In this document: piece after piece, positions 34,696 through 54,873 of the stretch
Position numbering within the stretch: the stretch's first letter is position 1
Layout of the letters: each line of letters begins with the position of its first letter
Assembly: GCA_041946735.1 (NCBI GenBank)
Contig: JBHGAY010000001.1
Location: 96,001-160,000, forward strand
Direction: 5' to 3'
Length of the DNA stretch: 64,000 bases
From: Candidatus Eiseniibacteriota bacterium
GTDB taxonomy: Bacteria > Eisenbacteria > RBG-16-71-46 > CAIMUX01 > VGJL01
Notes under the pieces: generated by a model
Seen by the model: only the letters and a program-made list of their open reading frames with translations
The model's database searches: none
What the model was told of the DNA's origin: nothing
Position numbers and translations under genes: made by a program

Positions 34696-37600
34696 CTATC
34701 GTACGTGGGCCAGCTTCTCGATTTTCTCGAGGCGGCCCTCCGGTCCTTCCACGCTCAGCTTGTAATAGTAAAGCCCATTGGCGACCCGGTCGCCGTCCTC
34801 GTCCCGGCCGTCCCAGTAGACCGGGGGATCGCTCAACCCCTGTCGAACGGGAAGGCCGCGAAGCGTTCGGATGAGCTTGCCGCTCGTCGTATAGATCCGG
34901 ATCGACGCGGAGTGCATCGAGGCGCCGAGGTTGTAGAAGAACCAGGTCTCTTTCTCGAAGGGATTGGGCACGTTGTACAACGCCTCGATCGCGAACGCCC
35001 GATCGGTCTGGATCGTGATCGGCGTCGCCGGGAACTGCGCCCATTCCCCCTCGGGTTGCCGCACGCGCAACGCGAGGGTTCGCGGACTGCCGTTGGCGAT
35101 CGGACCGGACGCGACGAGCGTCCAGTGCCGCGCCTGTCCATCGACCGGCTCGGCGGGGATCGACTCGACCGGGAAGGCGACGCCGTCCAGGAGCATCTCG
35201 ATCGAGGCGGCGTCGAGCGTGCGAGGGGCGTCGACCACGACGCGGATCGAGTCCTCGTCGAGAACCCGCTCCCCGCCCGCGATCGAGACCCACTCCTGTC
35301 CGGGCCGGCGGATCTGGAAGGTCGCGTCGAGACGGACGGGGAACTCGAGGACCGACTCCCGGCCCGTTCCGTCCTCCGCGCGGATCACGACGGAGTAGTT
35401 CCTCGGCAGGACGGTGGTGCGGTAGCGGGCCACGAACCCGCGGTCGCCGACCGTCGTGTCGGGCACGACGACGATCCGGTCGGGCGGCACGGCGCCACCG
35501 GCGTCCTCGATCGTCAGCGAGCGCGCCCAGACCTCGTCGCGCACCGCCATCTCGAAGTCGACCGAGTCGCTGCCGGCGGGAAGGACGAGCGGAGTGCCGC
35601 TCGTGATCGGCGCGCCGTCGAGCGTGACGGCGACGCGCGGCGGCGCCGCGTCGAGGATCATCCCGGGGTCGCCGAGCATCACGTAGGTCATGCACATGCT
35701 CTGGTAGTCGGTCCCCGGCCGCGAGAGAAGGTTCGCCTTGCTCTGCGTGAACACCTCCCCCAGGACCCAGCGCGTGTGCCCGTCGGATTGCGGCGGATTG
35801 CGGAAGAAGGCGTCGGCCATCGTCGTCGCCGCCGCCTGCGTCGTGCTGATCCATTCGTAGCCGGTCGAGGCGATCGAGGCGATCGATCCCCCGGTCGGCG
35901 TGTAGAACATCATGTTCTCGCCGACGCAGTCCCCCTTGCCGAATCGCTTCTCGTCGGCGCCGGAGAACTCGTCGAGATGGCAGCCGTACCCGATGTAGAC
36001 GAAAGGACGGCCGCTGTTCCCGAGCAGGCCGATGTCGAGGAAGCTCGTCCCGTCGTTGTGCCGCAGAATGTACTCGTGCGACATCAGGCGCGCGTTCGCA
36101 TGCCCCGCATAGGTCATCAGCAGGTAGCCGCGGCTCGCGGCGGCGGCGAGGAGCGGGCGGACGACGCGGATGCCGTAGTCCCGGTTGTCCTGCTCGTTGG
36201 TCGGCTGCCCGTTCAGGATCACGCGCCCGGAGATCGGGTCCCGCATGCATCGTCCCGTGTTCTCGTCGATCACGCAGCGGCCGAGGCTCGGGACGGAGTC
36301 CATGTAGGTGTAGACGTAGAAGGAGTCGACGCCGAAGTCCGGGGCCGCGCCGTACTCCCGGAGAATCCGGCGGGTCGCCCGGGCGGAAGAGAGGAACGCG
36401 CTCTCGTAGTCGCGGAAGCGGTAGTCCTCGGAGAAGCTGATGCTCGAAGAGTACTGGTCGTCGCTCACGAGCAGCATCCGGTTGCGCCACACCTGATCGG
36501 GCGCGAAGGACGCGTAGGCGAGGAGCCGGTTCTCGATCGTCTGAAGCTGTTGCAGGCTGCCGGCCGGGAGGCGGCCGACGTGCATGTCGGGCAGGAAGTC
36601 GAGGTCCTCCCCGGTGCCGGTCAGGTTGTCGACGAACCACATGTCGGACGCGACCAGCTCGGGCCCCTGCGCGCCGTCGTAGGAGCTGGAGAAGACCGTC
36701 TGCGTGGGCACCCAGTTGCGGTCCGCCAAGACGAGGGGATTGTCGAACGCGTCGCTCGCGTCACCGACCAGCAGCAGATAGGACGGCCCCGCGCCGCCGC
36801 CGCGCCGGAACATCGCGCGCAGCATCGAGCGGATCGCGTGCGGCCAGTGGTGGCCTCCGGCGAACTGGTCGTAGACGTCCTCGATCGCCGCGGCGAGCAC
36901 GTGGTGCCCCTCCGAGGTGCGCAGGTCGATCAGCGGCTGGAGCGCTTCGAGCCACTCGCGCGGCGCGATCATCACGTAGTCCTCGCCGCCGCCGGCGAGC
37001 AGGTCGACCGGCTGCGCGAGCGCGAGCGTCTCCGGCTTGGGAACGAGAGCGGCTTCGCCCAGCGAGAAGCGGCGCGCGTTGCCGTCCAGCTCCCACTGGA
37101 GGCGCAGCTTCGGGGGACCGCCCTGCACCTGGGTCGGGTCGATCGCCAACGCGCGGGGGTGCAGCGGATCGGTGTACTCGATGCCGACCGGATCGGCCGG
37201 CGGACCGATCAGCCGCCACTCCTCGGCGCCGGTCAGGTCGGCGGTGTCGATGTCGATCCGCCCGTCGACGAACTTCGGCGCCCGGTCGTACTCGACCTCG
37301 AACCAGTCGAGCGCCGCCCCGTAGAGCGTCTCGTCCTGCAGGTGGACGAAGGCGTTGTTTCGCTCGCGCAGCGGGAGGCCGGCCAGGTCGTCCGCCGTGA
37401 AGTCGATCCGCTTCGTCCCCTGGAAGTCGATCGTGTCCGGGTTTCCGGGCAGCGCGACGCGCGGGCCGTCGCCCTGCAGGAACAGCGACACTCGGTGCTC
37501 CCAGCCGCCCGGCGGCTTCCGTGTTCCCTGCATCTGCACCGACATCGCGCGAGCCGAGACGAAGCCGGGAAGATCGAACGGCACGCTGTAGACGTTCGCT

Positions 37601-38976
37601 TCCTCGCCCCCCTGGTTCGTGTACGGATCGCCGCCGAGCCAGTAGGCGTGCTTCGAGCGGACCGCCGCCACGCCGCGTCCGATCTGTCCCTCGAGGTCGA
37701 TCGAGTTGCTCGACCCGGCTCCCATCTTGCCGTAGACCTCCGCCTCCTTCTCGAAATGCTCGCGCCAGGGAGAGGAGACGACAGGGTTCAGATCCTCGCG
37801 GCCGAGCCACGTCGATGCGGACTCCATGCGGGCGTTGTCGCCCCCCGGACGGAGCGCAAGCCAGTAGACGTGGCGGCGCCCGTAGCGCTTGAGATGCCAG
37901 GGGGCCTCCGGATAACGGTCGTAAAGGATCTGGGCGTAGAAGAACAGCTCGTCCCCCGCGCTCCAGGTGCCCGAGCCGTCGTTGTCGCGCAGGAGAACGG
38001 GGATCTCGGTTTCCTGCGCGAGCGGGTCGCTCGCGTCATCGCTGTCGTAGAGGACGTCGTAGAGCCGGAGGTCGGCGAGCGGAGCGCCGGCGCCGCTCCA
38101 TCCCAGCGGGGCGACGTCGTCGTAGGCGATCCGGCGCAGCCCGCTCGACATCACCTCGATCTTGACCTCGTCGCCTTCGGCGCCGGGACGGCGCGCGGCG
38201 GGCGCGACCGCACGGGGCGCTCTCGCCCAGGCCCGCGCCTCGCGCGCGTTGACGAGGAGCGCGTCGTAGGTCCGTTCCCAGGAGGGATCGTCCGCGCTCA
38301 CGGGGACCAAAGACGCCCCGCGCGCCCCGCTGCGCGGAGCCGGGCCGGGGACGAAGGAGACGTGCACGCGGACGCGTCGCGCGACCCGCAGGACGCCGCC
38401 CGAGGGATCCCATCGGGCCGGAAAGATCGTGACCGGCACGGCGCGCAGGTAGCGCATCCCCGCCTCGCGCCCGGCGACGGCTGTGGCGGGCGGGAAGGGC
38501 GAGCGGTACGCCTCCTCCGACTCCTCGAGGGATTGGGAGTAGACCGCCTCCCCCGTCGGCCCTGTGTCCCAGCGAGGCGTCGGGACCGGCATCGGGCGGA
38601 TGCCGTCCCACTCGTCCTCCTCGAGCGGCTGGGCGTCGACCTGCACGCTCGCTCCAGGAGGCACGCCGACCCAGAAGCTGAGCGCCGGAAGCGCCGGGAC
38701 GCCGTATTCCGCGGCGGGGACGCCACCGTCGATCCGGATCTCGTGGTATCCGGGGTGGTCCGGGTCGGCGAGGACCGAAGCGGGCGGAATCTCCATCTCC
38801 GCCTCGAGCCCCCGTTCACTGGAAGAGAGGATCTGGATGCCGGGGGCGGCCCGGCAGACGCCGGCGAACAGGGTGAGGATAGCGAACAGAACGGCCAGTC
38901 GAACCGAAACGCGGCCAACGCCTCTCAGCGTTGCGCCTCTCTCTCCACCGTCTCCCGGCACGCGAAGCATCCGCAT
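34696..38976 (-). CDS. C25-family (gingipain/PorU-like) cysteine peptidase with C-terminal FlgD-like/T9SS-type domain
   Basis: Signal, propeptide, YVMIAP, YLLLVGD, VGRLPA, catalytic GH(AN) and GC(H), Y.MLGDP, PNPF...IYT.SGKLIR...WDGRD..G...ANGLYYYK; start uncertain. Confidence 0.82.
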
Positions 38977-45408: not shown

Positions 45409-47088
45409 ATGGCGGCGCCCTCGCTTCCGTCCGGCACGGCGGCCTCCGCCCCTTCGCTGCGGCGGTGGCGGCCTGCCGCCGTACGCCTCGCGCTCTGGAT
45501 CCTGATCGGGCTCGCCCTCCGCACCATCGCGCTTTCCGGCGACGGCCTCTGGATCGACGAGGGATATACCGCGTGGACGGCGCACCTCCCGGCGCGCGAG
45601 CACGAGATCGCGCGGAGCCACGACGACGCGCCGCCGCTCTACTACGCGATTGCGAGGGCCGTCGTCCCCCGCCTGCCTCCGACCGACGCCTCGGTGCGCG
45701 CGCTCTCCGCCGCTGCGGGGGTCGCAGGGACGGTCTGGCTCGCCCTCGCTCCTCCCGTGCCGGGGGCCCGGGAGGCGGCGGTCGCCTTCTTCGCGGCTGG
45801 CACCTACGGCGTGCATTACGGCCGGCAGGCGCGTTCCTACGCAGTGCTGATGCTCTGGACCGTGGTCCTGCTCACCGCCTCCGCCCGCGTGATGCAAGGC
45901 CGATCGCCGTGGTGGTTCGTCGTGGTGGCCGCGTCCGAGGCGCTCGCGCTCTGGACGCACAACGTCGCGGCCGCGCTCGTCGGCGGCGCGAATCTCGCGT
46001 GGCTGCTCGCCGGCCTGCCGCGCCCGCGCGGCTGGTTGCTCGCGCAAGCGGCGGCGTTCCTCGCCTGGCTTCCCTATCTGGTTCGGGCGATGCCACAGCT
46101 CTCCGTCCACGCGACGCTGAACGTCTGGATCGAGAAGTACTGGGAGCGGGTGCCGCTCGCCATCGCTCCGCTCGCAAGCCTCGAGGCGTTCACGAGCGGC
46201 GCGCGCGTCTGGCCGAATCCGCCCGTGCCGCTGTGGATGTGGCGGGGTCCCGGCTCGACCGTCCTCGCGATTCTCGCCTTCGCCGCGGTGGTCCTGCTCG
46301 GCGTGGCGGCGTTGCGGGGCGCGCGGAGGCGCGAGGCGCGGCTCGCGGCGGGCTTCACGCTCGGTCCGCTGGTGGCGATGACGGTCCTCTCGCTCGTGAC
46401 CACGCCGAGCTACATCCTCGGCAGGACGGATGCGGTCGCCTATCCCGGCTTCGTGCTCTGGATGGCGATCGGCGCCGTCTCGGTCGAGCGCCGATGGCTG
46501 CGCAGGGCGGCGGTGGGCGTGCTGGCGCTTTCGACGATCCTCGGGACGGCCAGCGGTCTTCCCCTGGGAGACCGCGGCGCCGACCACGACCGTCAGGTGG
46601 GACGCGCGGTCGCCGGAGAGCTGCGCCCCGGCGACTGGATCGCCTACGTCGGGCTCTCGCGCCCCTCGATCGACTACTACGTCTCGGGCGGACGCCCGGG
46701 CTGCGTCGATCCTGTCCACCACCGCCTCGACTACCCCGCGATCTTCGGCGACAACCCGGCGGCCGTCTATCCGACGCCGGCCGAGAGCCTGGAGGTCTGG
46801 AACGAGGAGGCGCGCGACGTGCGCCGCTCGTTCGAGCGGCAGGCGGCGCCCGGCGCGAAGATCTGGTTCGTCGGGCCGATCCAGCCGGGTGCGCCGCGGG
46901 AAGCGACGGCCGAGGATCTGCCCTACCCGGGCAGCCTGCTCGCCTACGCGCTGAACGGGCTGCGGCCGCTCGATCCGCTGATCCGGCTGCGCGGGGACGC
47001 GGTCGGCGTCGACTGGATCGCTTTCGCGGTGGAGCGAGACTCGCTGATCCCCGAATCGGAGCTGCGCGAGGTGGAGGCGGCGCCGTGA
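45409..47088 (+). CDS. GT-C fold integral-membrane glycosyltransferase (PMT_2/ArnT-like)
   Basis: LWIDEG in first loop, PPLYY, QARSYA, LWTHN, about ten TM helices, soluble C-terminal domain. Confidence 0.75.
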   Translation: MAAPSLPSGTAASAPSLRRWRPAAVRLALWILIGLALRTIALSGDGLWIDEGYTAWTAHLPAREHEIARSHDDAPPLYYAIARAVVPRLPPTDASVRALSAAAGVAGTVWLALAPPVPGAREAAVAFFAAGTYGVHYGRQARSYAVLMLWTVVLLTASARVMQGRSPWWFVVVAASEALALWTHNVAAALVGGANLAWLLAGLPRPRGWLLAQAAAFLAWLPYLVRAMPQLSVHATLNVWIEKYWERVPLAIAPLASLEAFTSGARVWPNPPVPLWMWRGPGSTVLAILAFAAVVLLGVAALRGARRREARLAAGFTLGPLVAMTVLSLVTTPSYILGRTDAVAYPGFVLWMAIGAVSVERRWLRRAAVGVLALSTILGTASGLPLGDRGADHDRQVGRAVAGELRPGDWIAYVGLSRPSIDYYVSGGRPGCVDPVHHRLDYPAIFGDNPAAVYPTPAESLEVWNEEARDVRRSFERQAAPGAKIWFVGPIQPGAPREATAEDLPYPGSLLAYALNGLRPLDPLIRLRGDAVGVDWIAFAVERDSLIPESELREVEAAP

Positions 47089-49166
47089 GCCGGCGACCCG
47101 AGAGCCGCCCGCCGCGCACGGCGCTCGCGCTCCTCGCCATCTTCGCCCTCCTCGCCGCCGCCGTGCTTCCGCACCTCGGCGCGCTGGGCAACGGCTTCGT
47201 CTTCGACGACCGTGGCGTGATCGTCGAGAACTCCGCCGTCACGAGCTTCGATCTCGGCGGCATCTGGAGCCGGCCGTACTGGCCCTCGCTCACAGGCGGC
47301 GCGAACCTCTTCCGTCCCCTGACGACCACGAGCTTCGCGATCGACTGGGCTCTGGGCGGCGGACGCCCGAGCTTCTTCGTCGCCACGAACCTTGCGCTGC
47401 ACGCGATCACCTGCCTGCTCGCCTGGGCCCTGATCCGCCGTCTCTGGCCCGCGCGCGCGGGGCTCGCGCTCGCCGCGACTCTCCTCTTCGCCGTGCATCC
47501 GATCCACGTCGAAGCGGTCGCGGGGATCGTGGGGCGCGGGGAGATCCTCTCGGCCCTTCTCTCGCTGCTCGCCTACCGAGCCTGGCTCGACGACGAGGGG
47601 CGGCGCCTTCGCGCGCGGGCGGGCGGCACGAGCGCGCCGCGCGCGGCGATCGCCTGGGCCCTCGCCGCTCCGGCTCTCTGGCTCCTCGCGCTTCTCGCCA
47701 AGGAGGGCTCGCTCGGCCTTCCGATCCTCCTCGCCGCGCACCGGGTGGGCCTGCTTCGGATCGAGGCGGCGCCGGCGGAGCGCGGCCCACGCGCCCGCGA
47801 CCTCGCGTGGCCGGCCGCGCTCGCCGTCGCGGTCCTGCTGCGCGCGCACGCCCTCGGCCGGCTCGACGCTCCACGTCCCTCGCTCCTCGACAATCCCCTC
47901 GCCCACGTCGGGCCGCTCGCGCGCGCGCTCGGCGCCGGAGGGGTCCTCGGTCGCCAGCTCGCGCAGATCGTCCTGCCGCTGCACCTCTCGGCGGACTACT
48001 CCTACCGGCAGGTCGCTCCGGGTGCGGCGCTCTATGTGCCGGGGGCGCTCGTGCTCGCGGCGTGCGCCGCCGGCGTGATCGCCGCGATCCGTTCCGGACG
48101 GGCGAAGCCGTGGGGATGGGGGATCCTCTTCTTCACGTCCTTCTGGATCGTGACGAGCAACCTCCTCGTGCCGATCGGAACGGCGCAGGCCGACCGGTTG
48201 CTCTATCTGCCCCTGCTCGGCCTTGTCGTCGCCGCTTGCGCGGGGCTCGGGCGCCTGCTCGCGACGGCGCGCCTGCGCGTCCTCGCGCCGTGGCTCGCGG
48301 CCGCGCTCGCCGGAGCGCTCGTCGCCGCCTTCGCCGTCCGCTCCGCCGTTCGCGTCCGCGACTGGCGCGACGACGGGACGCTCTTCGAAGCGGCGGTGCG
48401 CGACGCGCCGCGCAGCATCAAAGCGCGCTCGAACCTGGCCGCGGTCTGGCTTCGCGACCAGCGCCCGGAGACCGCCCGGCGCGTTGCCGCTCTCCTGGCG
48501 CCCGTCGAGCCGGAAGGAAGCGAGTTCGGCTCGTTCCTCCAGAGGAAAGCGAAGGTGGCGATGTTCCTCGGCGAGCGCGAGCGCGCCCGCGATCTCTATC
48601 GTGAGTCGCTCGCGCGCGGCGCCGACTCGTCGGAGGTCTGGATCGAGTTGGGGAATCTCGCGATCGAAGCGGGAGACGGCGCCGAAGCGCTCTCCGCCTT
48701 CGATGCGGCGGCCCGCCGCGGCCGGCTGACGCAGCACGTCGCGATCGGCCGCGCGTCGGCGCTCTCGATCCTCGGCCGCACGAGCGAAGCGGCCGACGCC
48801 TGGCTGCCCATCGTGGCGCAGCTTCCCGACTCGGTGCCGGTGCGGACCGCGACCGCGTGGAATCTGCGCGAGGCGGGGCGGACGGCGGAGGCGGTCGCGA
48901 TCCTGCGGGATGGCATCGCGCGACGCGACGATCCTCGCCTGTGGGACTCGCTCGCGCGCACGCTCCTCGCGTCCGGCCGGGCGGGCGAGGCGGTCGTCGC
49001 GGCGCGTAGGGCGGTCGAGCTGTCGCGATCCGAGGAGAACCGGACGACCCTCGCTCTCGCGCTCGCGGAGTCGGGCGAGCCTGGCGAGGCGCGGGCGATC
49101 CTCTCGGGAATCGACGATCCCGATCTTCGATCGGAGATCGAAGCCGCCCTCAGCTCGCCTCGCTGA
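47085..49166 (+). CDS. TMTC-like (DUF1736 + TPR) GT-C protein glycosyltransferase homologue
   Basis: GFVFDD..VI.EN, FRPL, LFAVHPIHVEAVAGIVGR, LLAKE, LSADYS, ADRLLYLP, WRDD.TLF, C-terminal TPRs; GTG start at 47085. Confidence 0.82.
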   Translation: MSRRPESRPPRTALALLAIFALLAAAVLPHLGALGNGFVFDDRGVIVENSAVTSFDLGGIWSRPYWPSLTGGANLFRPLTTTSFAIDWALGGGRPSFFVATNLALHAITCLLAWALIRRLWPARAGLALAATLLFAVHPIHVEAVAGIVGRGEILSALLSLLAYRAWLDDEGRRLRARAGGTSAPRAAIAWALAAPALWLLALLAKEGSLGLPILLAAHRVGLLRIEAAPAERGPRARDLAWPAALAVAVLLRAHALGRLDAPRPSLLDNPLAHVGPLARALGAGGVLGRQLAQIVLPLHLSADYSYRQVAPGAALYVPGALVLAACAAGVIAAIRSGRAKPWGWGILFFTSFWIVTSNLLVPIGTAQADRLLYLPLLGLVVAACAGLGRLLATARLRVLAPWLAAALAGALVAAFAVRSAVRVRDWRDDGTLFEAAVRDAPRSIKARSNLAAVWLRDQRPETARRVAALLAPVEPEGSEFGSFLQRKAKVAMFLGERERARDLYRESLARGADSSEVWIELGNLAIEAGDGAEALSAFDAAARRGRLTQHVAIGRASALSILGRTSEAADAWLPIVAQLPDSVPVRTATAWNLREAGRTAEAVAILRDGIARRDDPRLWDSLARTLLASGRAGEAVVAARRAVELSRSEENRTTLALALAESGEPGEARAILSGIDDPDLRSEIEAALSSPR

Positions 49167-49290: not shown

Positions 49291-50256
49291 CTACCGGAAC
49301 AGCGACTTGAGCGCGCCCCAGGTCGACACCCGGGTGGCGGTCTCATTGCAGAACCAGAAGGAGTCCGCGCTCGTCCCGTTTGTCGTGCAGAGGTTCGAGA
49401 TGCCGTTGAACACGCCGCTCCACGTCGGCAGCGGCTGCGTCGGGTCGGCGACCCGTGTCATGCACTCCGCCTCGGTGGTAACGATGCACACCCGGTTCTC
49501 GCCAGAGCTGTAGCAGCAGGCGCTGCAGAGATCGCAGGAGCTGCCGTCGCCGAGATAGACGCCGGAAGAATCGGCGCACACGGTGTAGTCGACCACTTCG
49601 CAGCGAGCGTCGTCCTGGAAGCAGCAACCGCCGAGCAGCGGGGGCTCGGGGCAGTCGTTGGTGCCGGGGCCCTGCCACTCCACGCGCCCGAACTTGAAGA
49701 TCTGATCCTCGACGGGCGGCACGGACAGGTCCGCGACGAGTGCCTTGCCGATGCCGGGATAGACGCCCGTGCCGAAGTAGCTGCCCGGTCCTTGTCCGTA
49801 GGCTGCGAACCAGTAGAACGGAAAGATCGTGTCGGTCATCGGACTGGCGAAGCCGACCAGGTTGCCGGACGGGCTCGTGTCGGGCCAGCCCGCATCGGGA
49901 TTCTCGAGGACGCCGCAAGAGCTGTACTGCGGGACGTACCCCTGGCCGGGGGGAAGATTGTGGTCGACGCCGAACTGGAGGCCACCGACCTGGGGGTGGT
50001 GCTGCGGAGTGAACGCGCAGAGGAACCAGATCAAGGCGAGCTGATCGGCGGGCTTGTCCGTGCGCGTGTTCGCCGACGCGCAGTCGGCCGGCGCATGGGC
50101 CTGATAGTCGGCGCCGCAATAGGTTCCGGACGCGGTGAACGTGATGCTGTCGTCGGTGTGCACGATCAGCGCTCCGTTGTTGTTCCTTCCTGCCAGTGCG
50201 GGCCCGGATGCCGCGACCAGCATTGCGAGAGCTGCCAGCAGAATCCTTCTGGACAT
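49291..50256 (-). CDS. secreted Cys-rich repeat protein, paralog A
   Basis: Signal peptide ending PALA, shared G.N..GA.IVHT.D domain, two CC repeats, C-terminus STWGALKSLFR; GGAGG RBS. Confidence 0.85.
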   Translation of the reverse strand: MSRRILLAALAMLVAASGPALAGRNNNGALIVHTDDSITFTASGTYCGADYQAHAPADCASANTRTDKPADQLALIWFLCAFTPQHHPQVGGLQFGVDHNLPPGQGYVPQYSSCGVLENPDAGWPDTSPSGNLVGFASPMTDTIFPFYWFAAYGQGPGSYFGTGVYPGIGKALVADLSVPPVEDQIFKFGRVEWQGPGTNDCPEPPLLGGCCFQDDARCEVVDYTVCADSSGVYLGDGSSCDLCSACCYSSGENRVCIVTTEAECMTRVADPTQPLPTWSGVFNGISNLCTTNGTSADSFWFCNETATRVSTWGALKSLFR

Positions 50257-50344
50257 TTCGAAAGCCTCCTCCTCTCGGCGGGCGCCACGCCGCTCGTTCG
50301 GAGCACCGCCGCGCGTCCTCGGTCTCGATCCATGACGACCAAGA

Positions 50345-50390
50345 CCGACGCTGTTCCCCTCACTCCCAGCGTCGGCAATCCTGAGGGGAA
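50345..50390 (-). promoter_or_regulatory. interleaved inverted repeats (pseudoknot or switch candidate) upstream of paralog A
   Basis: Two perfect 9-bp pairs in A-B-A'-B' order. Confidence 0.5.
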
Positions 50391-50422
50391 GTATCGAGGA
50401 CCCCGCGAGCGGGGCGCAACGG

Positions 50423-50446
50423 AAAAAGCCCGCGTAACGGCGAGCC
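50423..50446 (-). terminator. intrinsic terminator after paralog B
   Basis: Minus strand GGCTCGC-CGTTAC-GCGGGCT followed by TTTT. Confidence 0.5.
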
Positions 50447-50487
50447 TGCGGACCCACCGGACGGCCGGAAGCCTCTTCTGGCTCGGG

Positions 50488-50903
50488 CTATCGGTAGTTC
50501 GCCTTGACCCGCCCCCAGGTCGTCGACTCCGTGGCGACCGGCGGGCACACGACCCCCTCGCAGTTCGGTAGACCCATCCATTCGCCGCCCACGGCAACGC
50601 AGTCCGGCTCCATCATCTCCTCGCAGTCGCCTTCGATGCAGCACGCGCCTGTCTGCGGATCATCGTCTCAACGCCGGGCGGTTTGTTCGATTGCGTCACT
50701 GCCGTCACGCAGTCCGACGGGTTGTAGATGTCGCTGCAGAAGTCGGCTCCCGTCGGTGTGTAGTTCACCGCGTCGTTCGTGTGCACGATCATCGCCCCGC
50801 CCGCGTTCTTCCCCGCCAGCGCCGGAGTGGCAGCCAGGGGCAGAAAAGAGAGGGCGCCGAAGAGAGTGAGCAAGAAGGCAGGCGAGTAGCAGGAGAATCT
50901 CAT
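50488..50903 (-). pseudogene. Cys-rich repeat protein paralog B, internally deleted and frameshifted
   Basis: N-terminus ...PALAGKNAGGAMIVHTNDAVNYT...ETMI joins out of frame at GATC (50658-50661) to DPQTGACCIEGDC...PPVATESTTWGRVKANYR*. Confidence 0.85.
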
Positions 50904-50948
50904 CACGGCACCTCCGTGCGTGAGGAAGGAGATGAGAACTGGAAAGCG

Positions 50949-50978
50949 GTGGGCCCGCCCCAGGAGGGACGGGCCCAC
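50949..50978 (-). terminator. hairpin downstream of paralog C
   Basis: GTGGGCCCG...CGGGCCCAC 9-bp stem, weak T-run. Confidence 0.4.
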
Positions 50979-51013
50979 GCATCGTGACTAGCCGCTAGCT
51001 CTCGGGAAGAGAA

Positions 51014-52150
51014 CTACCGGTAGTTGGCCTTGATCTGGCCCCAGGTGGTGGACTCGGTCGCGACCGGCGGCGGGCACTCGACACCCTCGCAGGTCTCCTG
51101 ATTCATCCACAGACCACCCTGAGCCGTGCAGTCGTCCTCGAGAATCACCGTGCACTCGCCAGCGATGCAGCAAGCACCCGGCGTCGGCGGAATCGGGCAC
51201 TCCGCCACGTCGCAGGTCGGCCACTCGGGGTGGAACGTCCCACCGTTGGCCTCGCACTGCTCGGCCGTGAGGACCTCGCAGCTACCGTCGTCGTAGCAGC
51301 AGGCAGCCGGCGGAGTCGGGCAGACGAACGTATCGCAGTTCGTGCCCTCGCCCTCAGGCGTGCCACCCGCAAGCGTGCAGTCCGCCGCCAGCAGGTTCTG
51401 GCAGGAGCCATCCTCGAAGCAGCAAGCCTGCGGCTGCTCGCAGGGGTTCGGGTCACAGGTCGTGCCCTCGCCCATGAAGTCGCCGGTGCAAGCGGTCTGC
51501 TCGAGAACCTCGCAAGTGCCGTCCGGATAGCAGCAAGCGCCCGTCACCGGAGCGGTCGGGCAGTCGTTGTATCCGGCCTCCATCCAGCGAACCTCGCCAA
51601 ACAGGAAGCAGAGATCCTCGACCGGCGGAACCGAGTCGTCGGCGAACTTTGCGAGTCCGTCGCCCGGGTACACGCCAGAGCCGAAGAAGCTGCCCGCGCC
51701 GTTCTGGTAGGCACCGAACCACGCGAACGTCTGGAAGTTGCCAGCGATCGGAGCCAAGCGACCGATCAGAGTTCCACCCGGGGTATCGGGGAAACCCTGA
51801 TCCGGCAGAACGAGAGCGTCCGTCGGGCAGGCGCTCCAGTGAGGAACGTAGCCCTGCCCCGGCGGCAGGTTGTGACGCACGCCGAACTGGACGCCGGCGA
51901 CGACCGCATCCGCTCCCTCGGGGAAAGCCGCGAGGAACCAAATGAGGGTCTCGGTAGCCGCGTCCTTGTCCGACCGGGTCACTGCAGAAGCACAGTCGGC
52001 CGGCTTGTACTGATCCTGGCAGAAGTCCAGGTTCGTGTAGTTCACGGCGTCGTTCGTGTGAACGATCATCGCGCCGCCTGCGTTCTTTCCTGCCAGTGCC
52101 GGGCTACAGATCAGGGCCAAGATGCCCAGCGCCAGTAGAAGTTTCTTCAT
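51014..52150 (-). CDS. secreted Cys-rich repeat protein, paralog C
   Basis: MKKLLLALG signal, shared N-terminal domain, four 6-Cys ACC..DG.C repeats, C-terminus STTWGQIKANYR. Confidence 0.9.
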   Translation of the reverse strand: MKKLLLALGILALICSPALAGKNAGGAMIVHTNDAVNYTNLDFCQDQYKPADCASAVTRSDKDAATETLIWFLAAFPEGADAVVAGVQFGVRHNLPPGQGYVPHWSACPTDALVLPDQGFPDTPGGTLIGRLAPIAGNFQTFAWFGAYQNGAGSFFGSGVYPGDGLAKFADDSVPPVEDLCFLFGEVRWMEAGYNDCPTAPVTGACCYPDGTCEVLEQTACTGDFMGEGTTCDPNPCEQPQACCFEDGSCQNLLAADCTLAGGTPEGEGTNCDTFVCPTPPAACCYDDGSCEVLTAEQCEANGGTFHPEWPTCDVAECPIPPTPGACCIAGECTVILEDDCTAQGGLWMNQETCEGVECPPPVATESTTWGQIKANYR

Positions 52151-52330
52151 CGCGTTTCGACCTCCCTAGGGTTGTCACGAAATCGAAGTACTCGGAACTC
52201 CCAGCTCGCGCGTTTTGCCGGGAGTCGACTCGAGACGGCGCCTGCCGTCTCGCACCACCTCCACCCCACCCCGAACCCGCTCACCTCGCAACCCGGGCCC
52301 GGCGAAACCCGGATCGCCACACGTCCTGCG

Positions 52331-52945
52331 TCAGGGCGTGCAGTCGCGGGTCGTCGAAAGCCAGGACTGACCGAAGACCGTGAAGTCGGTCAGGGTCATC
52401 AGTCCATCATTGTTGTAGTCGTGGCAGCTCGGGTTGTTGGGGTTGCCGAACGCCGCGGAAAGAGCCGTGAAGTCCGCGAGGGTGATCGACAAGCTCCAGA
52501 GACCGGGAAGACCGGCGTTGTCCGATCCACCGTAGTCCGGGCTGACCGCCGCGTTGAAGTTGCGGATCTCGACGCCGTTCGCACGGATGACGATCGCGTT
52601 CGGGCCCTTGTAGCAACCACCGCCGCCCAGGTTGATCGTGGCCTGGCCAGCGACGTTGGTCGTATAGGACGTCGTCTCCGACGCGCACAGCTTGGTCTTG
52701 TTGTCGGCGATGCCGCCGATCAAGATCTCGACGATCGCGTTGTTGATCGGATTGTTCGCGGCGTTCTTCACCGTGACGGTGAAGGTCGCCTGGCTGACCG
52801 GCGACGTCCCGTTCTCATCGGGGATGAGAAGAACGCGCTGCGGTCCGTCGAGGCTCGTCGAGCAGTTCGAAGGATCGGGTACGTCTGCGTTGGCCACCGT
52901 AGCGACCAGTGCAAGCGCACAGAAGGCGAAGAACAACCTCTTCAT
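52331..52945 (-). CDS. secreted protein with Ig-like region and dockerin/EF-hand-like Ca-binding motifs
   Basis: Signal MKRLFFAFCALALVATVANA; FTVTVKNAANNPINNA.V; TTNVAGQA; ITLADF and DYNNDGLMTLTDF. Confidence 0.75.
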   Translation of the reverse strand: MKRLFFAFCALALVATVANADVPDPSNCSTSLDGPQRVLLIPDENGTSPVSQATFTVTVKNAANNPINNAIVEILIGGIADNKTKLCASETTSYTTNVAGQATINLGGGGCYKGPNAIVIRANGVEIRNFNAAVSPDYGGSDNAGLPGLWSLSITLADFTALSAAFGNPNNPSCHDYNNDGLMTLTDFTVFGQSWLSTTRDCTP

Positions 52946-53112
52946 TCGTTTGACCTCCACGAAGTCAGTTGACCAGCTAGCCTACAAAGATCGTTGCTTG
53001 GTCGGAACAGGAAGCACCCTCGTGCGCGGGCCCCGAAGGGCTTCAGCAGGCGGATTCGTAGTTGCCGCACCTCCTTCTGAAGCATGCTCCGCTGTTAGGC
53101 TTGCACGGGAAT

Positions 53113-53141
53113 AGTGTACCGCCCACCCCAGAGTCGGTCAA
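53113..53141 (-). promoter_or_regulatory. sigma70-like promoter of the secreted-protein cluster
   Basis: Minus strand TTGACC, 17 nt, TACACT. Confidence 0.6.
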
Positions 53142-53456
53142 GCCGCAGTTTTTTCCTAACGACTCCGAGATCGTCGGTTACGAGGAAGGTCGTTCGCTCC
53201 TCCCCCCTGATACACTCCCGTGCCCGCCGTCCGACGAGGCGCCGCCCCCTCCGGCAGATCGGGGGCGATCGATCCTTGCGGCCGGTCCCTTCTTCGTTCG
53301 GCATGGGAGGCGAGGATCCCCAGCAAAACCCTGAAACGGCGCAAGCAGGATTCCTGCAAGACGATGGGGTGGCAGGCGGGGGGAGATCGAGGAGGCCGCC
53401 ACGAGGCGGGCCGTAGGAGGACGGGCGGCTCGAACACGGCCAGGGGGCAGCGCGGC

Positions 53457-53531
53457 TGGTGGGCGAGACAGGGGTCGAACCTGTGACCTCCTGCTTGTAA
53501 GGCAGGCGCTCTACCGTTGAGCTACTCGCCC
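53457..53531 (-). tRNA. tRNA-Val(TAC)
   Basis: GGGCGAGTAGCTCAACGGTAGAGCGCCTGCCTTACAAGCAGGAGGTCACAGGTTCGACCCCTGTCTCGCCCACCA: cloverleaf, TAC anticodon, encoded CCA. Confidence 0.97.
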
Positions 53532-53538
53532 ATTATGT

Positions 53539-53868
53539 TCAATCGTTCGTCCCGGGCGAGCTTGTACGTCCCCCCGTGGCTCCGCGGCCGGATCGATCCC
53601 CTCGGGCGACGATCCCCCAGGGAATGAGGACGATGTAGCCTCCGACCAGGAGCAGAGGGGCGAAGGTGATGTCTCCGAGCGCGAGAAGGACGAAGCCGAT
53701 CAGGATGGCCGCTCCGCCGGCTCCGAGCAGAAGGAAGTTCTTGCGCGACCAGTCGAGATGGCTCTCCTCGCCGGTCTCCGGCGCCGCGCGGCGCGGGGCC
53801 TCCGCCGGGGGCTTGCGAATCCCCCGTCCCGCCTGCGTCCCTGCCTTGCGACCCCTGCTCGTGGACAT
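53539..53868 (-). CDS. DUF3098-like small membrane protein
   Basis: RKNFLLLG.G...ILIGF.LL...APLLLVGGYIVLIPWGI, two TM helices. Confidence 0.7.
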   Translation of the reverse strand: MSTSRGRKAGTQAGRGIRKPPAEAPRRAAPETGEESHLDWSRKNFLLLGAGGAAILIGFVLLALGDITFAPLLLVGGYIVLIPWGIVARGDRSGRGATGGRTSSPGTND

Positions 53869-53955
53869 TGCCGTAGCTCCTTTCTTCCCTTCGTCTCCCG
53901 GCGGCCGCATCCGCGCCCCGATGCCCGGCGCGCGGGAGCGATCGTCGTCGCCGGG

Positions 53956-54873
53956 TCAGTCCCCGCTCGCTCCGGCCGGATCCCCCTTCGACAGGCGCTC
54001 GCAGGGAGCGCGGTCGCAGGAACTGCCGTCCCCCGCCCAGGTCCCTCCCTCGCGCACGCAGTCGCGCTGCTGGACCATCCGGCAGGAACCGTCGGGCAGG
54101 CAGCAGGCCGCGACGGGAGCGCGGATCGTGCAGATGCGCGAGGTGCAGAAAGAGCCTTCCCCGAGGAACTCCGCGCCCTGGTAATAGCCCGCCTGAGTCC
54201 GAGTGAGCATGACGCAGAGCGAATCCTGGACGCAGGTTGCGCCCATCTCCGGTCCGGGGAAGATCGGGGCCGGGGCGTTGCCCGGGCGGCCGAAGCCGAT
54301 CGCGCCGAAGCCTGCGAGCGAGGTCTCGACCGGCTCCGCCGTGCTGATCTTCCCGCCGAAGCGGGGATCGGGATGCGGGATCAGCTCCAGGGTCCCTTCC
54401 TTGGCCGCCTGCACGGCGAGCCATCCCAGCTCGACCACGCGCGAGGTGTCGGGATGGGTCGTGAAGCCTAGGAGGATCCCTTCGTCGCTCGCAGGCCAAT
54501 CGCTGGTCGGCAGCTCGAGGCATTCCCTGCAGCGTCCCGTGCGCAGGACTTTGACCCCTTCGCTATAGCGGATGCCGAAGCATGCGCCGGCCAGCTCGGG
54601 CTTCGCGCTGTCCGGGAAGGCGGCCAGGATGTAGACGACGCGCGGCTGCGAAGAGGGGGAGATCGTGACGATGGCCTGCTCGGGGGACGGGGTGGCGGAG
54701 AGGCCGGTGTACTTGCCAGCCGGGTCGTAGGGAATCTCCGGGGCGAGGGACAGATAGAGGACGGCGCCCGAATTGTCGCCGACCGCACGCGCCTGCTGCG
54801 CGAAACCCAGCCCGAGCACTCCGGCCGCGAACAGGACGGCCGCGCTCCAGCGCCGCGCTCGACCCCTCTTCAT
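53956..54873 (-). CDS. secreted Cys-rich repeat protein, divergent paralog D (no TWG tail)
   Basis: Signal; GDNSGAVL, VYILAAFP, GACFGIRY, ELPTSDWP align to paralogs A and C; ACCLPDGSC repeat; alternative start 54894. Confidence 0.75.
   Translation of the reverse strand: MKRGRARRWSAAVLFAAGVLGLGFAQQARAVGDNSGAVLYLSLAPEIPYDPAGKYTGLSATPSPEQAIVTISPSSQPRVVYILAAFPDSAKPELAGACFGIRYSEGVKVLRTGRCRECLELPTSDWPASDEGILLGFTTHPDTSRVVELGWLAVQAAKEGTLELIPHPDPRFGGKISTAEPVETSLAGFGAIGFGRPGNAPAPIFPGPEMGATCVQDSLCVMLTRTQAGYYQGAEFLGEGSFCTSRICTIRAPVAACCLPDGSCRMVQQRDCVREGGTWAGDGSSCDRAPCERLSKGDPAGASGD

Follow-up and report, generated by a model that had tools for sequence, protein, structure and literature searches.

What is the function of a short peptide that closes three neighbouring genes for secreted, cysteine-rich proteins in an uncultured bacterium? 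The genes lie in a 64,000-nucleotide stretch of a Candidatus Eiseniibacteriota genome (assembly GCA_041946735.1, contig JBHGAY010000001.1, positions 96,001 to 160,000), hereafter the window, and their shared C-terminal peptide, hereafter the tail, was taken in a sequence-only reading to be a minimal amphipathic export or anchoring signal unrelated to known sorting systems and possibly served by machinery encoded close by. We find that the tail ends some 85 mostly unrelated exported proteins of this genome, often where their relatives carry a type IX secretion system (T9SS) signal, and it is therefore probably an address label for that pathway. We assign a probability of roughly 0.5 to the reading that it is a minimal T9SS-routed signal for the outer-membrane machinery. 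The genes and their tails are positioned as follows:

49291..50256, minus strand: gene A, 321 amino acids (aa), with a signal peptide, an N-terminal domain homologous to the cohesin-fold domain of C, one Cys repeat plus an extra Cys-rich stretch, and the tail.
49291..49344, minus strand: tail of A, its final 17 codons and the stop.
50488..50903, minus strand: gene B, a paralogue of C with an internal deletion and a frameshift at about 50661-50664; the tail is intact in the downstream frame.
50488..50541, minus strand: tail of B, out of frame relative to the start of B.
51014..52150, minus strand: gene C, 378 aa, with a signal peptide, a cohesin-fold domain, four Cys repeats and the tail.
51014..51067, minus strand: tail of C, an extended linker and then a helix at residues 370-377 (predicted local distance difference test score, pLDDT, 61-65).

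The three proteins end, as originally quoted, in STWGALKSLFR, TTWGRVKANYR and TTWGQIKANYR, and a further paralogue, D, has no tail. The motif is real, and at about 17 residues it is longer than the ten first ascribed to it; its consensus is P-[VT]-A-[TV]-[EQ]-x-x-[TS]-W-G-x-[VIL]-[KR]-x-x-[YF]-R-stop. When the pattern [ST]W[GS]x[ILVM]K was first scanned across all six frames of the 4.89-Mb genome, 48 matches were obtained, of which 39 lie exactly ten residues before a stop codon and 44 within 14, a placement that is more than chance. With a weight matrix and a threshold of 12 bits, 85 matches were obtained, and in 83 a stop follows within 15 residues; a loose pattern returned 93 open reading frames (ORFs), of which eight were judged to be shadow-frame ORFs and removed, leaving 85 tail ORFs. 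These 85 are spread over 38 contigs. The distance from the Ser/Thr to the end is exactly ten residues in 75 of them; 84 have the Gly and 79 the terminal Arg. In all 85 the final ten residues have a net charge of +1 to +4, the mean hydrophobic moment is 0.45, and none contains a transmembrane stretch (the highest 17-residue hydropathy is 1.5).

Most of the proteins that carry the tail are predicted to be exported. A permissive signal-peptide rule was satisfied by 63 of 75 tail ORFs compared with 736 of 2021 control ORFs; a number of the ORFs that failed it are truncated at the end of a contig, frameshifted or interrupted by in-frame TGA codons. Among the 78 tail ORFs with 100 aa or more, 66 have a signal peptide. 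The tail frames at C16:31218, C45:59734 and C18:57339 start directly after an in-frame TGA and continue an upstream coding-like frame. The 80 cargos that could be compared fall into 31 clusters, the largest of which has 40 members joined through shared repeats, and the Pfam domains found among 75 tail proteins include beta-helix, PPC, CHRD, spondin, lamin-tail, cupredoxin and AhpC/TSA. The view of the tail as a basic, amphipathic C-terminal signal on exported proteins that is independent of protein family is thus borne out, and confinement to a single family, which would have spoken against that view, was not seen.

The tail itself matches no Pfam model (A, C and 75 other tail proteins) and no NCBIfam model (A, C and 60 other tail proteins). 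A single match to an NCBIfam PEP-CTERM family falls on cargo residues 4-102, far under the cut-off. The original statement that the tail has no transmembrane helix and corresponds to no curated sorting model stands. In the structural model of C the body has a pLDDT above 90 and the tail is separate in confidence from the repeats, indicating that the tail is not part of the last Cys repeat; the possibility that it folds as an integral portion of that repeat is thereby set aside.

To call the tail unrelated to the T9SS is too strong, since the tail alternates with the T9SS-type domain and tracks T9SS genes. Two hundred and forty-six proteins of this genome end in the FlgD-like form of the T9SS C-terminal domain (CTD), and the genome also encodes SprA, two members of the PorV family and a PorU orthologue, which scores 596 bits. 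For 29 of the 80 tail cargos this genome also encodes a homologue with an FlgD/T9SS-type domain at its end, and 20 of these pairs align up to the junction; behind cargo of the beta-helix, cupredoxin, CHRD and Cys-repeat types, tail and domain have a common starting point. The tail closes 109 of 119 homologues of C; one has a T9SS-type domain there and nine have neither. In one metagenome protein (L310, minus strand, a 599-codon frame; one of 123) the peptide sits directly between a cleavage-like motif and a complete CTD, and no tail stands ahead of a CTD among the 250 CTD matches of this genome.

A second line of evidence comes from the residues that precede the helix. A pair consisting of a small and an aliphatic residue is fixed upstream of it in three lineage variants with different spacings (68 of 84; 117-120 of 120; and 103 of 115, the last count coming from matches retrieved with a pattern that lacked the pair). 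The predicted cut position is occupied by Ala, Ser or Gly in 70 of the 85 tails of this genome and in 117 of 120 from Bacteroidota. Published PorU sites follow X/(GSA)(VLI), including EPT/ATEQ for HBP35 (PMC4560394), and a PT/GI site is cleaved in Prevotella intermedia (PMC11969387). A related motif occurs in 66 of 241 linkers before the CTDs of this genome, whereas control windows gave 14-15 and shuffled sequences 19 +/- 4; Ala leads at the predicted cut in tails and CTD linkers alike. Short T9SS signals also have precedent: CTDs of 43-55 residues in P. intermedia (PMC11969387) and the last 22 residues of HBP35, which constitute a minimal signal (PMC3120885), are far shorter than the standard domain and keep the PT/GI-type site.

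The tail is widely distributed in other genomes. A strict DNA pattern found a match in 57 of 61 related genomes and no control match, and a looser pattern found one in 148 of 151 genomes of the phylum. The four relatives that lacked a strict match were considered as negative controls and rejected, as all four bear tails under the looser pattern and all have SprA and PorV; a core cargo shared across low-copy relatives was likewise looked for and rejected, because the cargos differ. In a scan of species genomes (at least 127 stretches, after one chance match without a stop was dropped from the set) the tail was found on varied cargo in Eisenbacteria, Krumholzibacteriia, Latescibacterota and Effluviviaceae, and, among the matches listed, on one protein of 130-150 residues in Kapaibacterium, Melioribacter, KSB1, a Chlorobiaceae bin and the cultured species Adhaeribacter terrigena (WP_200504148.1). 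A profile search with the tail recovered 1,584 representatives at 50% identity with E up to 0.001, and in 149 of the best 150 of these the last copy is found no more than 19 residues from the end. In a lower-GC variant, 120 of 123 metagenome matches are within 16 residues of a stop. Four IMG/VR viral contigs also encode tail proteins, one of them with a LamG domain.

In the model of the protein found in Bacteroidota, residues 21-120 adopt an FN3 fold (Z up to 11.0) and the helix stands apart behind it. The tail is at exactly ten residues in 120 of 120 homologues listed, and the helix is near-invariant. In a structure search, seven of ten Atlas rows for its FN3 domain are neighbours in Por_Secre_tail clusters. 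The strict pattern matched 47 of 201 Bacteroidota genomes, once in each save one with two matches (there were five control matches), and all 20 of the loci fetched held this FN3 carrier. It is a secreted, single-copy, unannotated protein in 47 of the 201 genomes (for example L069:2004-2405), and its neighbours are housekeeping genes, among which a Maf-like gene is the commonest (18 of 34 loci). All 47 have PorV-family and PorU-family genes, and the tail is in none of the 39 and 48 Bacteroidota genomes that lack PorV-family and PorU-family genes, respectively. In a wide scan SprA was above cut-off in 46 of 50 tail-bearing genomes. In the Eiseniibacteriota genome a PorV-like gene belongs to a run (L203:3411-19864, contig C11) that also comprises a multi-Big_1 protein, an inactive protease of M6-like type, an NHL protein, a protein of 1,200 aa with no family match, an Omp85 protein and a SurA-like peptidyl-prolyl isomerase (PPIase). 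Since 39 of the 47 tail-positive genomes have this protease (NF052323), and not all of them, it was rejected as an obligate partner of the tail.

A number of observations weigh against a T9SS route, and the first of them concern structure. The tail is modelled as a helix and has no beta-sandwich; the Ig-like beta-sandwich models PF18962, PF13860 and TIGR04183 found nothing in A, C and 75 other tail proteins; and motifs B, D and E, reported in PMC11969387 as being read by PorV, are not in the tail logo. The fold of known T9SS signals, as PMC11285876 and PMC10202324 present it, is missing from the tail, and the signal types A, B and C described so far are, in the latter, folded domains. Other points concern cargo and cut site. 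The tail also ends true lipoproteins, and a lipobox search of the 246 CTD proteins of this genome gave four weak matches. Median cargo size is 260 aa for the tail and 703 aa for the CTD. Among 124 tails taken across phyla, 55 have Pro and 4 have Gly directly after the predicted cut, whereas in five genomes of the Pro-rich group 19 of 28 CTD linkers have Gly at that position; when tail and CTD linkers were compared by position weights, the result was weak (1.53 versus 1.10 +/- 0.18, maximum 1.60). The co-occurrence is nested, a strict tail match being absent from 115 of 162 PorV-positive Bacteroidota genomes; it is counted over related genomes that are not independent; and GWxTD proteins fit equally well (47 of 47 tail-positive genomes, present in 128 of 201). 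Four of 50 tail-bearing metagenome-assembled genomes have no SprA match, and the FN3 carrier is not next to T9SS genes. Finally, 9 of the best 150 profile matches carry two to four copies, placed in tandem, between duplicated domains or near the N-terminus. Cytoplasmic or internal occurrence had been named beforehand as telling against a sorting signal, and these copies bring it about in part.

Two further observations concern lipoproteins and the T9SS apparatus. A mostly-lipoprotein family without a Pfam match carries one to four copies of the tail, and of its two members in this genome (C7:10674-11300 and C12:138364-139044) one has the tail and one does not. GldM and GldN gave no match in this genome, which is 94.8% complete, or in three other tail-bearing genomes, where divergent forms could be missed and GldK and GldL were not searched; both are present in Adhaeribacter. 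The presence of SprA, PorV and PorU without GldM or GldN matches possibly indicates a T9SS without the known motor and ring.

Several of these points would be expected if the tail were an uncleaved docking peptide for a scaffold or receptor of the periplasm or outer membrane outside the T9SS. Derivation from the linker that precedes the T9SS domain would explain the likeness between the two, and the peptide would serve to hold small binding proteins and lipoproteins, with avidity when repeated. The repeated, internal and N-terminal copies, the lipoprotein cargo, Pro in place of Gly at the predicted cut, cargo of the thioredoxin-fold AhpC/TSA type that could be periplasmic, and the near-invariant helix of the single-copy Bacteroidota protein all favour this alternative. 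However, conservation of the small-aliphatic pair at three spacings is what a site read on its own would show, the cargo domains concerned are elsewhere followed by a T9SS-type domain, and no conserved scaffold gene was found beside the FN3 carrier in 34 loci. We regard a docking peptide as unlikely.

The physical character of the tail raises the further alternative that the helix binds membrane lipid or lipopolysaccharide directly, with no need for a protein reader. In this it would resemble the membrane-targeting helix of MinD. The charge and hydrophobic moment of the 85 tails speak for such binding, a helix is seen in two models, and repeats would raise affinity. Against this, the Trp-Gly and the last Arg hardly vary and the tail keeps a set length (exactly ten residues in 75 of 85 and 120 of 120), helix position 7 is often polar, leaving three hydrophobic residues, and the distribution tracks T9SS lineages, so that lipid binding seems to us improbable. 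The same fixed distance to a free C-terminus, together with the terminal Arg in 79 of 85 tails, could instead reflect reading by a periplasmic C-terminal processing protease or a chaperone that governs maturation or turnover rather than location; Tsp/CtpA-like proteins and proteins with PDZ or TPR domains are candidate readers of this type. In the lower-GC variant, however, the helix ends 6-13 residues past the Thr and the last residue is not fixed, internal copies are well kept in sequence, and the tail interchanges with an export domain. A role in turnover is accordingly very improbable.

It can be seen from comparison with known systems that the tail is neither a type A T9SS domain nor a tripartite sorting signal, yet it resembles both in position and context. 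Like the type A CTD (TIGR04183 / PF18962; here the FlgD_ig-like PF13860), it accompanies a signal peptide and stands at the extreme C-terminus of unrelated cargo; it shares with that domain the junction, the cargo in the 20 pairs and genomes with SprA, PorV and PorU, and its upstream motif resembles the PorU site. It differs in having about 17 residues rather than 70-100, a helix rather than a beta-sandwich and no motif B, D or E, and in being found on smaller cargo, on lipoproteins and in tandem. The short CTDs of PMC11969387 and the HBP35 signal of PMC3120885 keep beta-strands and either motifs B, D and E or motifs D and E, of which the tail has none. PEP-CTERM, GlyGly-CTERM and LPXTG are also short C-terminal tags on unrelated exported proteins of similar kind, with the motif first and basic residues last, whereas the tail has no transmembrane helix, no NCBIfam match and no sortase-type gene adjoining. 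The targeting helices of MinD and FtsA are, like the tail, short, basic, amphipathic and C-terminal. These helices act in the cytoplasm, each on one protein family, whereas the tail is on exported proteins and has an invariant Trp-Gly. No description of the tail motif was found in open-licence papers and preprints.

The sequence-only reading had also suggested that neighbouring genes of the window, namely a PorU-like C25 peptidase, an exported PPIase, a TPR lipoprotein and two GT-C glycosyltransferases, form a dedicated system for sorting and modifying the tailed proteins. Three of these are:

34696..38976, minus strand: C25 peptidase with an FlgD-type C-terminal domain, a paralogue and not the orthologue of PorU.
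45409-47088, plus strand: membrane protein resembling a GT-C glycosyltransferase, with a weak Agl23-like match and no other.
~47085-49166, plus strand: membrane protein resembling a GT-C glycosyltransferase, with TPR repeats and no other match.

These genes are within 15 kb of A-C, and the C25 peptidase keeps its His and Cys motifs. Against the PorU model NF033707, whose curated cut-off is 420 bits, it nevertheless scores 185.5 bits; the PorU orthologue (596 bits) is on another contig, and the genome has 16 C25 peptidase genes, many with an FlgD-type domain, of which one passes the PorU cut-off. The TPR lipoprotein was not located in the window, where the only TPR repeats form the end of the membrane protein that ends at 49166. 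Homologues of the GT-like genes and the PPIase are in none of 120 tail loci from other genomes (flanks 2-5 kb), and a distant C25 is in one. Since the neighbouring genes have no homologues in these loci and the C25 is one of 16 paralogues, and with tail genes on 38 contigs, the dedicated local system fails, and a sorting and glycosylation apparatus of this kind is scarcely credible. A PADLOC scan returned nothing, and promoter and terminator scans gave chance-level results.

The gene cluster itself suggests what the tail may display. Its further features are:

51578..52096, minus strand: cohesin-fold beta-sandwich of C, residues 19-191, from an AlphaFold2 (AF2) model and structural matches.
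51074..51535, minus strand: the four Cys-rich repeats of C, residues 206-359.
52331..52945, minus strand: gene E, 204 aa, secreted, without a tail, with a weak match to Big_1 and, at the C-terminus, two dockerin-like repeats.
53457..53531, minus strand: tRNA-Val(TAC), between E and D and inside the paralogue cluster.
53956..54873, minus strand: gene D, 305 aa, a distant paralogue with one Cys repeat, no tail and no T9SS-type domain.

The placement of A, B, C and D was right, and E, a fifth secreted gene, and the tRNA between C and D are additions to it. A, C and D are open frames with signal-peptide-like N-termini. A and C are 50% identical across 241 columns and have the 11-residue string HNLPPGQGYVP exactly in common, as had been noted; D is 25-27% identical to both. 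The described range of one to four Cys repeats also holds, with one each in A, B and D and four in C. The N-terminal start G-x-N-x-x-G-A does not extend to D, whose G-D-N-S-G-A is one residue shorter. B is indeed broken: residue 81 of its N-domain is joined, in another frame, to the last Cys repeat at about 50661-50664, and a contig from an independent study covers 50566-50919 with 0 differences, indicating that the deletion is real and not an assembly slip. The family has 11 members in this genome, of which D and one other have no C-terminal signal of any kind.

By sequence, no Pfam family was found in A, C or D at E up to 1, the cohesin model PF00963 matches none of the three, and no solved structure matches the tail or the C family. 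When profiles of the C and FN3 families were compared, only the signal peptides aligned. Structure was more informative. Residues 19-191 of C are modelled with a pLDDT of 93, and in a search over 48,161 chains the best 18 structural matches are all cohesin-type modules, the first with a Z of 11.7 and a root-mean-square deviation of 2.8 over 130 aligned residues. Cohesin leads for the C family in the Atlas structure search were below the bar of that search. The N-domain thus has the fold of cohesin modules (PF00963; the non-cellulosomal 2vo8, 2w1n and 2xdh; Z 9.0-11.7), from which it differs in an identity of 6-14% and about 40 additional residues, and the 50% identity of A to C suggests the same fold for A. 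The likeness to cohesin systems extends to the dockerin-like gene that adjoins C-family genes. E has a PF02369 (Big_1) match at E 2e-5, below cut-off, and its homologue in a genome of the same order (L250:1983-2621), which has a PF00404 (Dockerin_1) match at E 0.0011, also below cut-off, lies between mltG and a tail-bearing relative of C. The gene order mltG, E, C-like gene is kept in this genome of another family within the order. It is a reasonable reading that C and E may form a cohesin-dockerin-like pair displayed by way of the tail.

If the tail is a minimal T9SS signal, the following route may be envisaged. Sec would export the protein to the periplasm, where the cargo would fold. The final ten residues are modelled as a basic amphipathic helix on a flexible linker, with the Trp, the aliphatic residue and the Tyr/Phe on one face. 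A conserved T9SS protein, for which a PorV-family barrel is the most likely candidate, would bind this helix, and the cargo would then be taken to the surface as are proteins with a folded C-terminal domain. The least certain step, which we offer as a tentative suggestion somewhat short of an even chance, is cleavage at P-[TV]/A-[TV]-E by a C25 enzyme of the PorU family, by which the cargo would be attached or set free; alternatively the tail would remain in place as a docking tag. Small proteins, mostly binding modules, make up the cargo, and in A-C the Cys repeats would form a stalk for the cohesin-fold domain, through which dockerin-like partners, E for instance, may be held at the surface. 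Taken in its widest form, the proposal is that the tail is a further class of T9SS signal, a ten-residue helix behind a sortase site that needs no folded domain, used by a T9SS without a recognisable GldM motor or GldN ring, kept on a single conserved FN3 protein in Bacteroidota and phyla related to them, carried over to small surface proteins, dozens to a genome, in Eisenbacteria and Krumholzibacteria, and here displaying cohesin-fold scaffolds for dockerin-like partners. To this combination we give a little less than even odds.

The conserved FN3 carrier in a cultured species, the test of the cleavage-like motif in three lineages, together with the evidence against it, and the cohesin fold of the family are new here. 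The cultured carrier Adhaeribacter terrigena makes a tail otherwise met so far in uncultured lineages testable in the laboratory. Should the tail prove independent of the T9SS, it would point to a widely conserved envelope receptor, which would be equally interesting. If the T9SS reading is true, a 17-residue signal would show how little the T9SS needs and would provide a very small tag for surface display, and thousands of proteins that lack annotation, from phyla not yet cultured, would be assigned a location (1,584 representatives at 50% identity).

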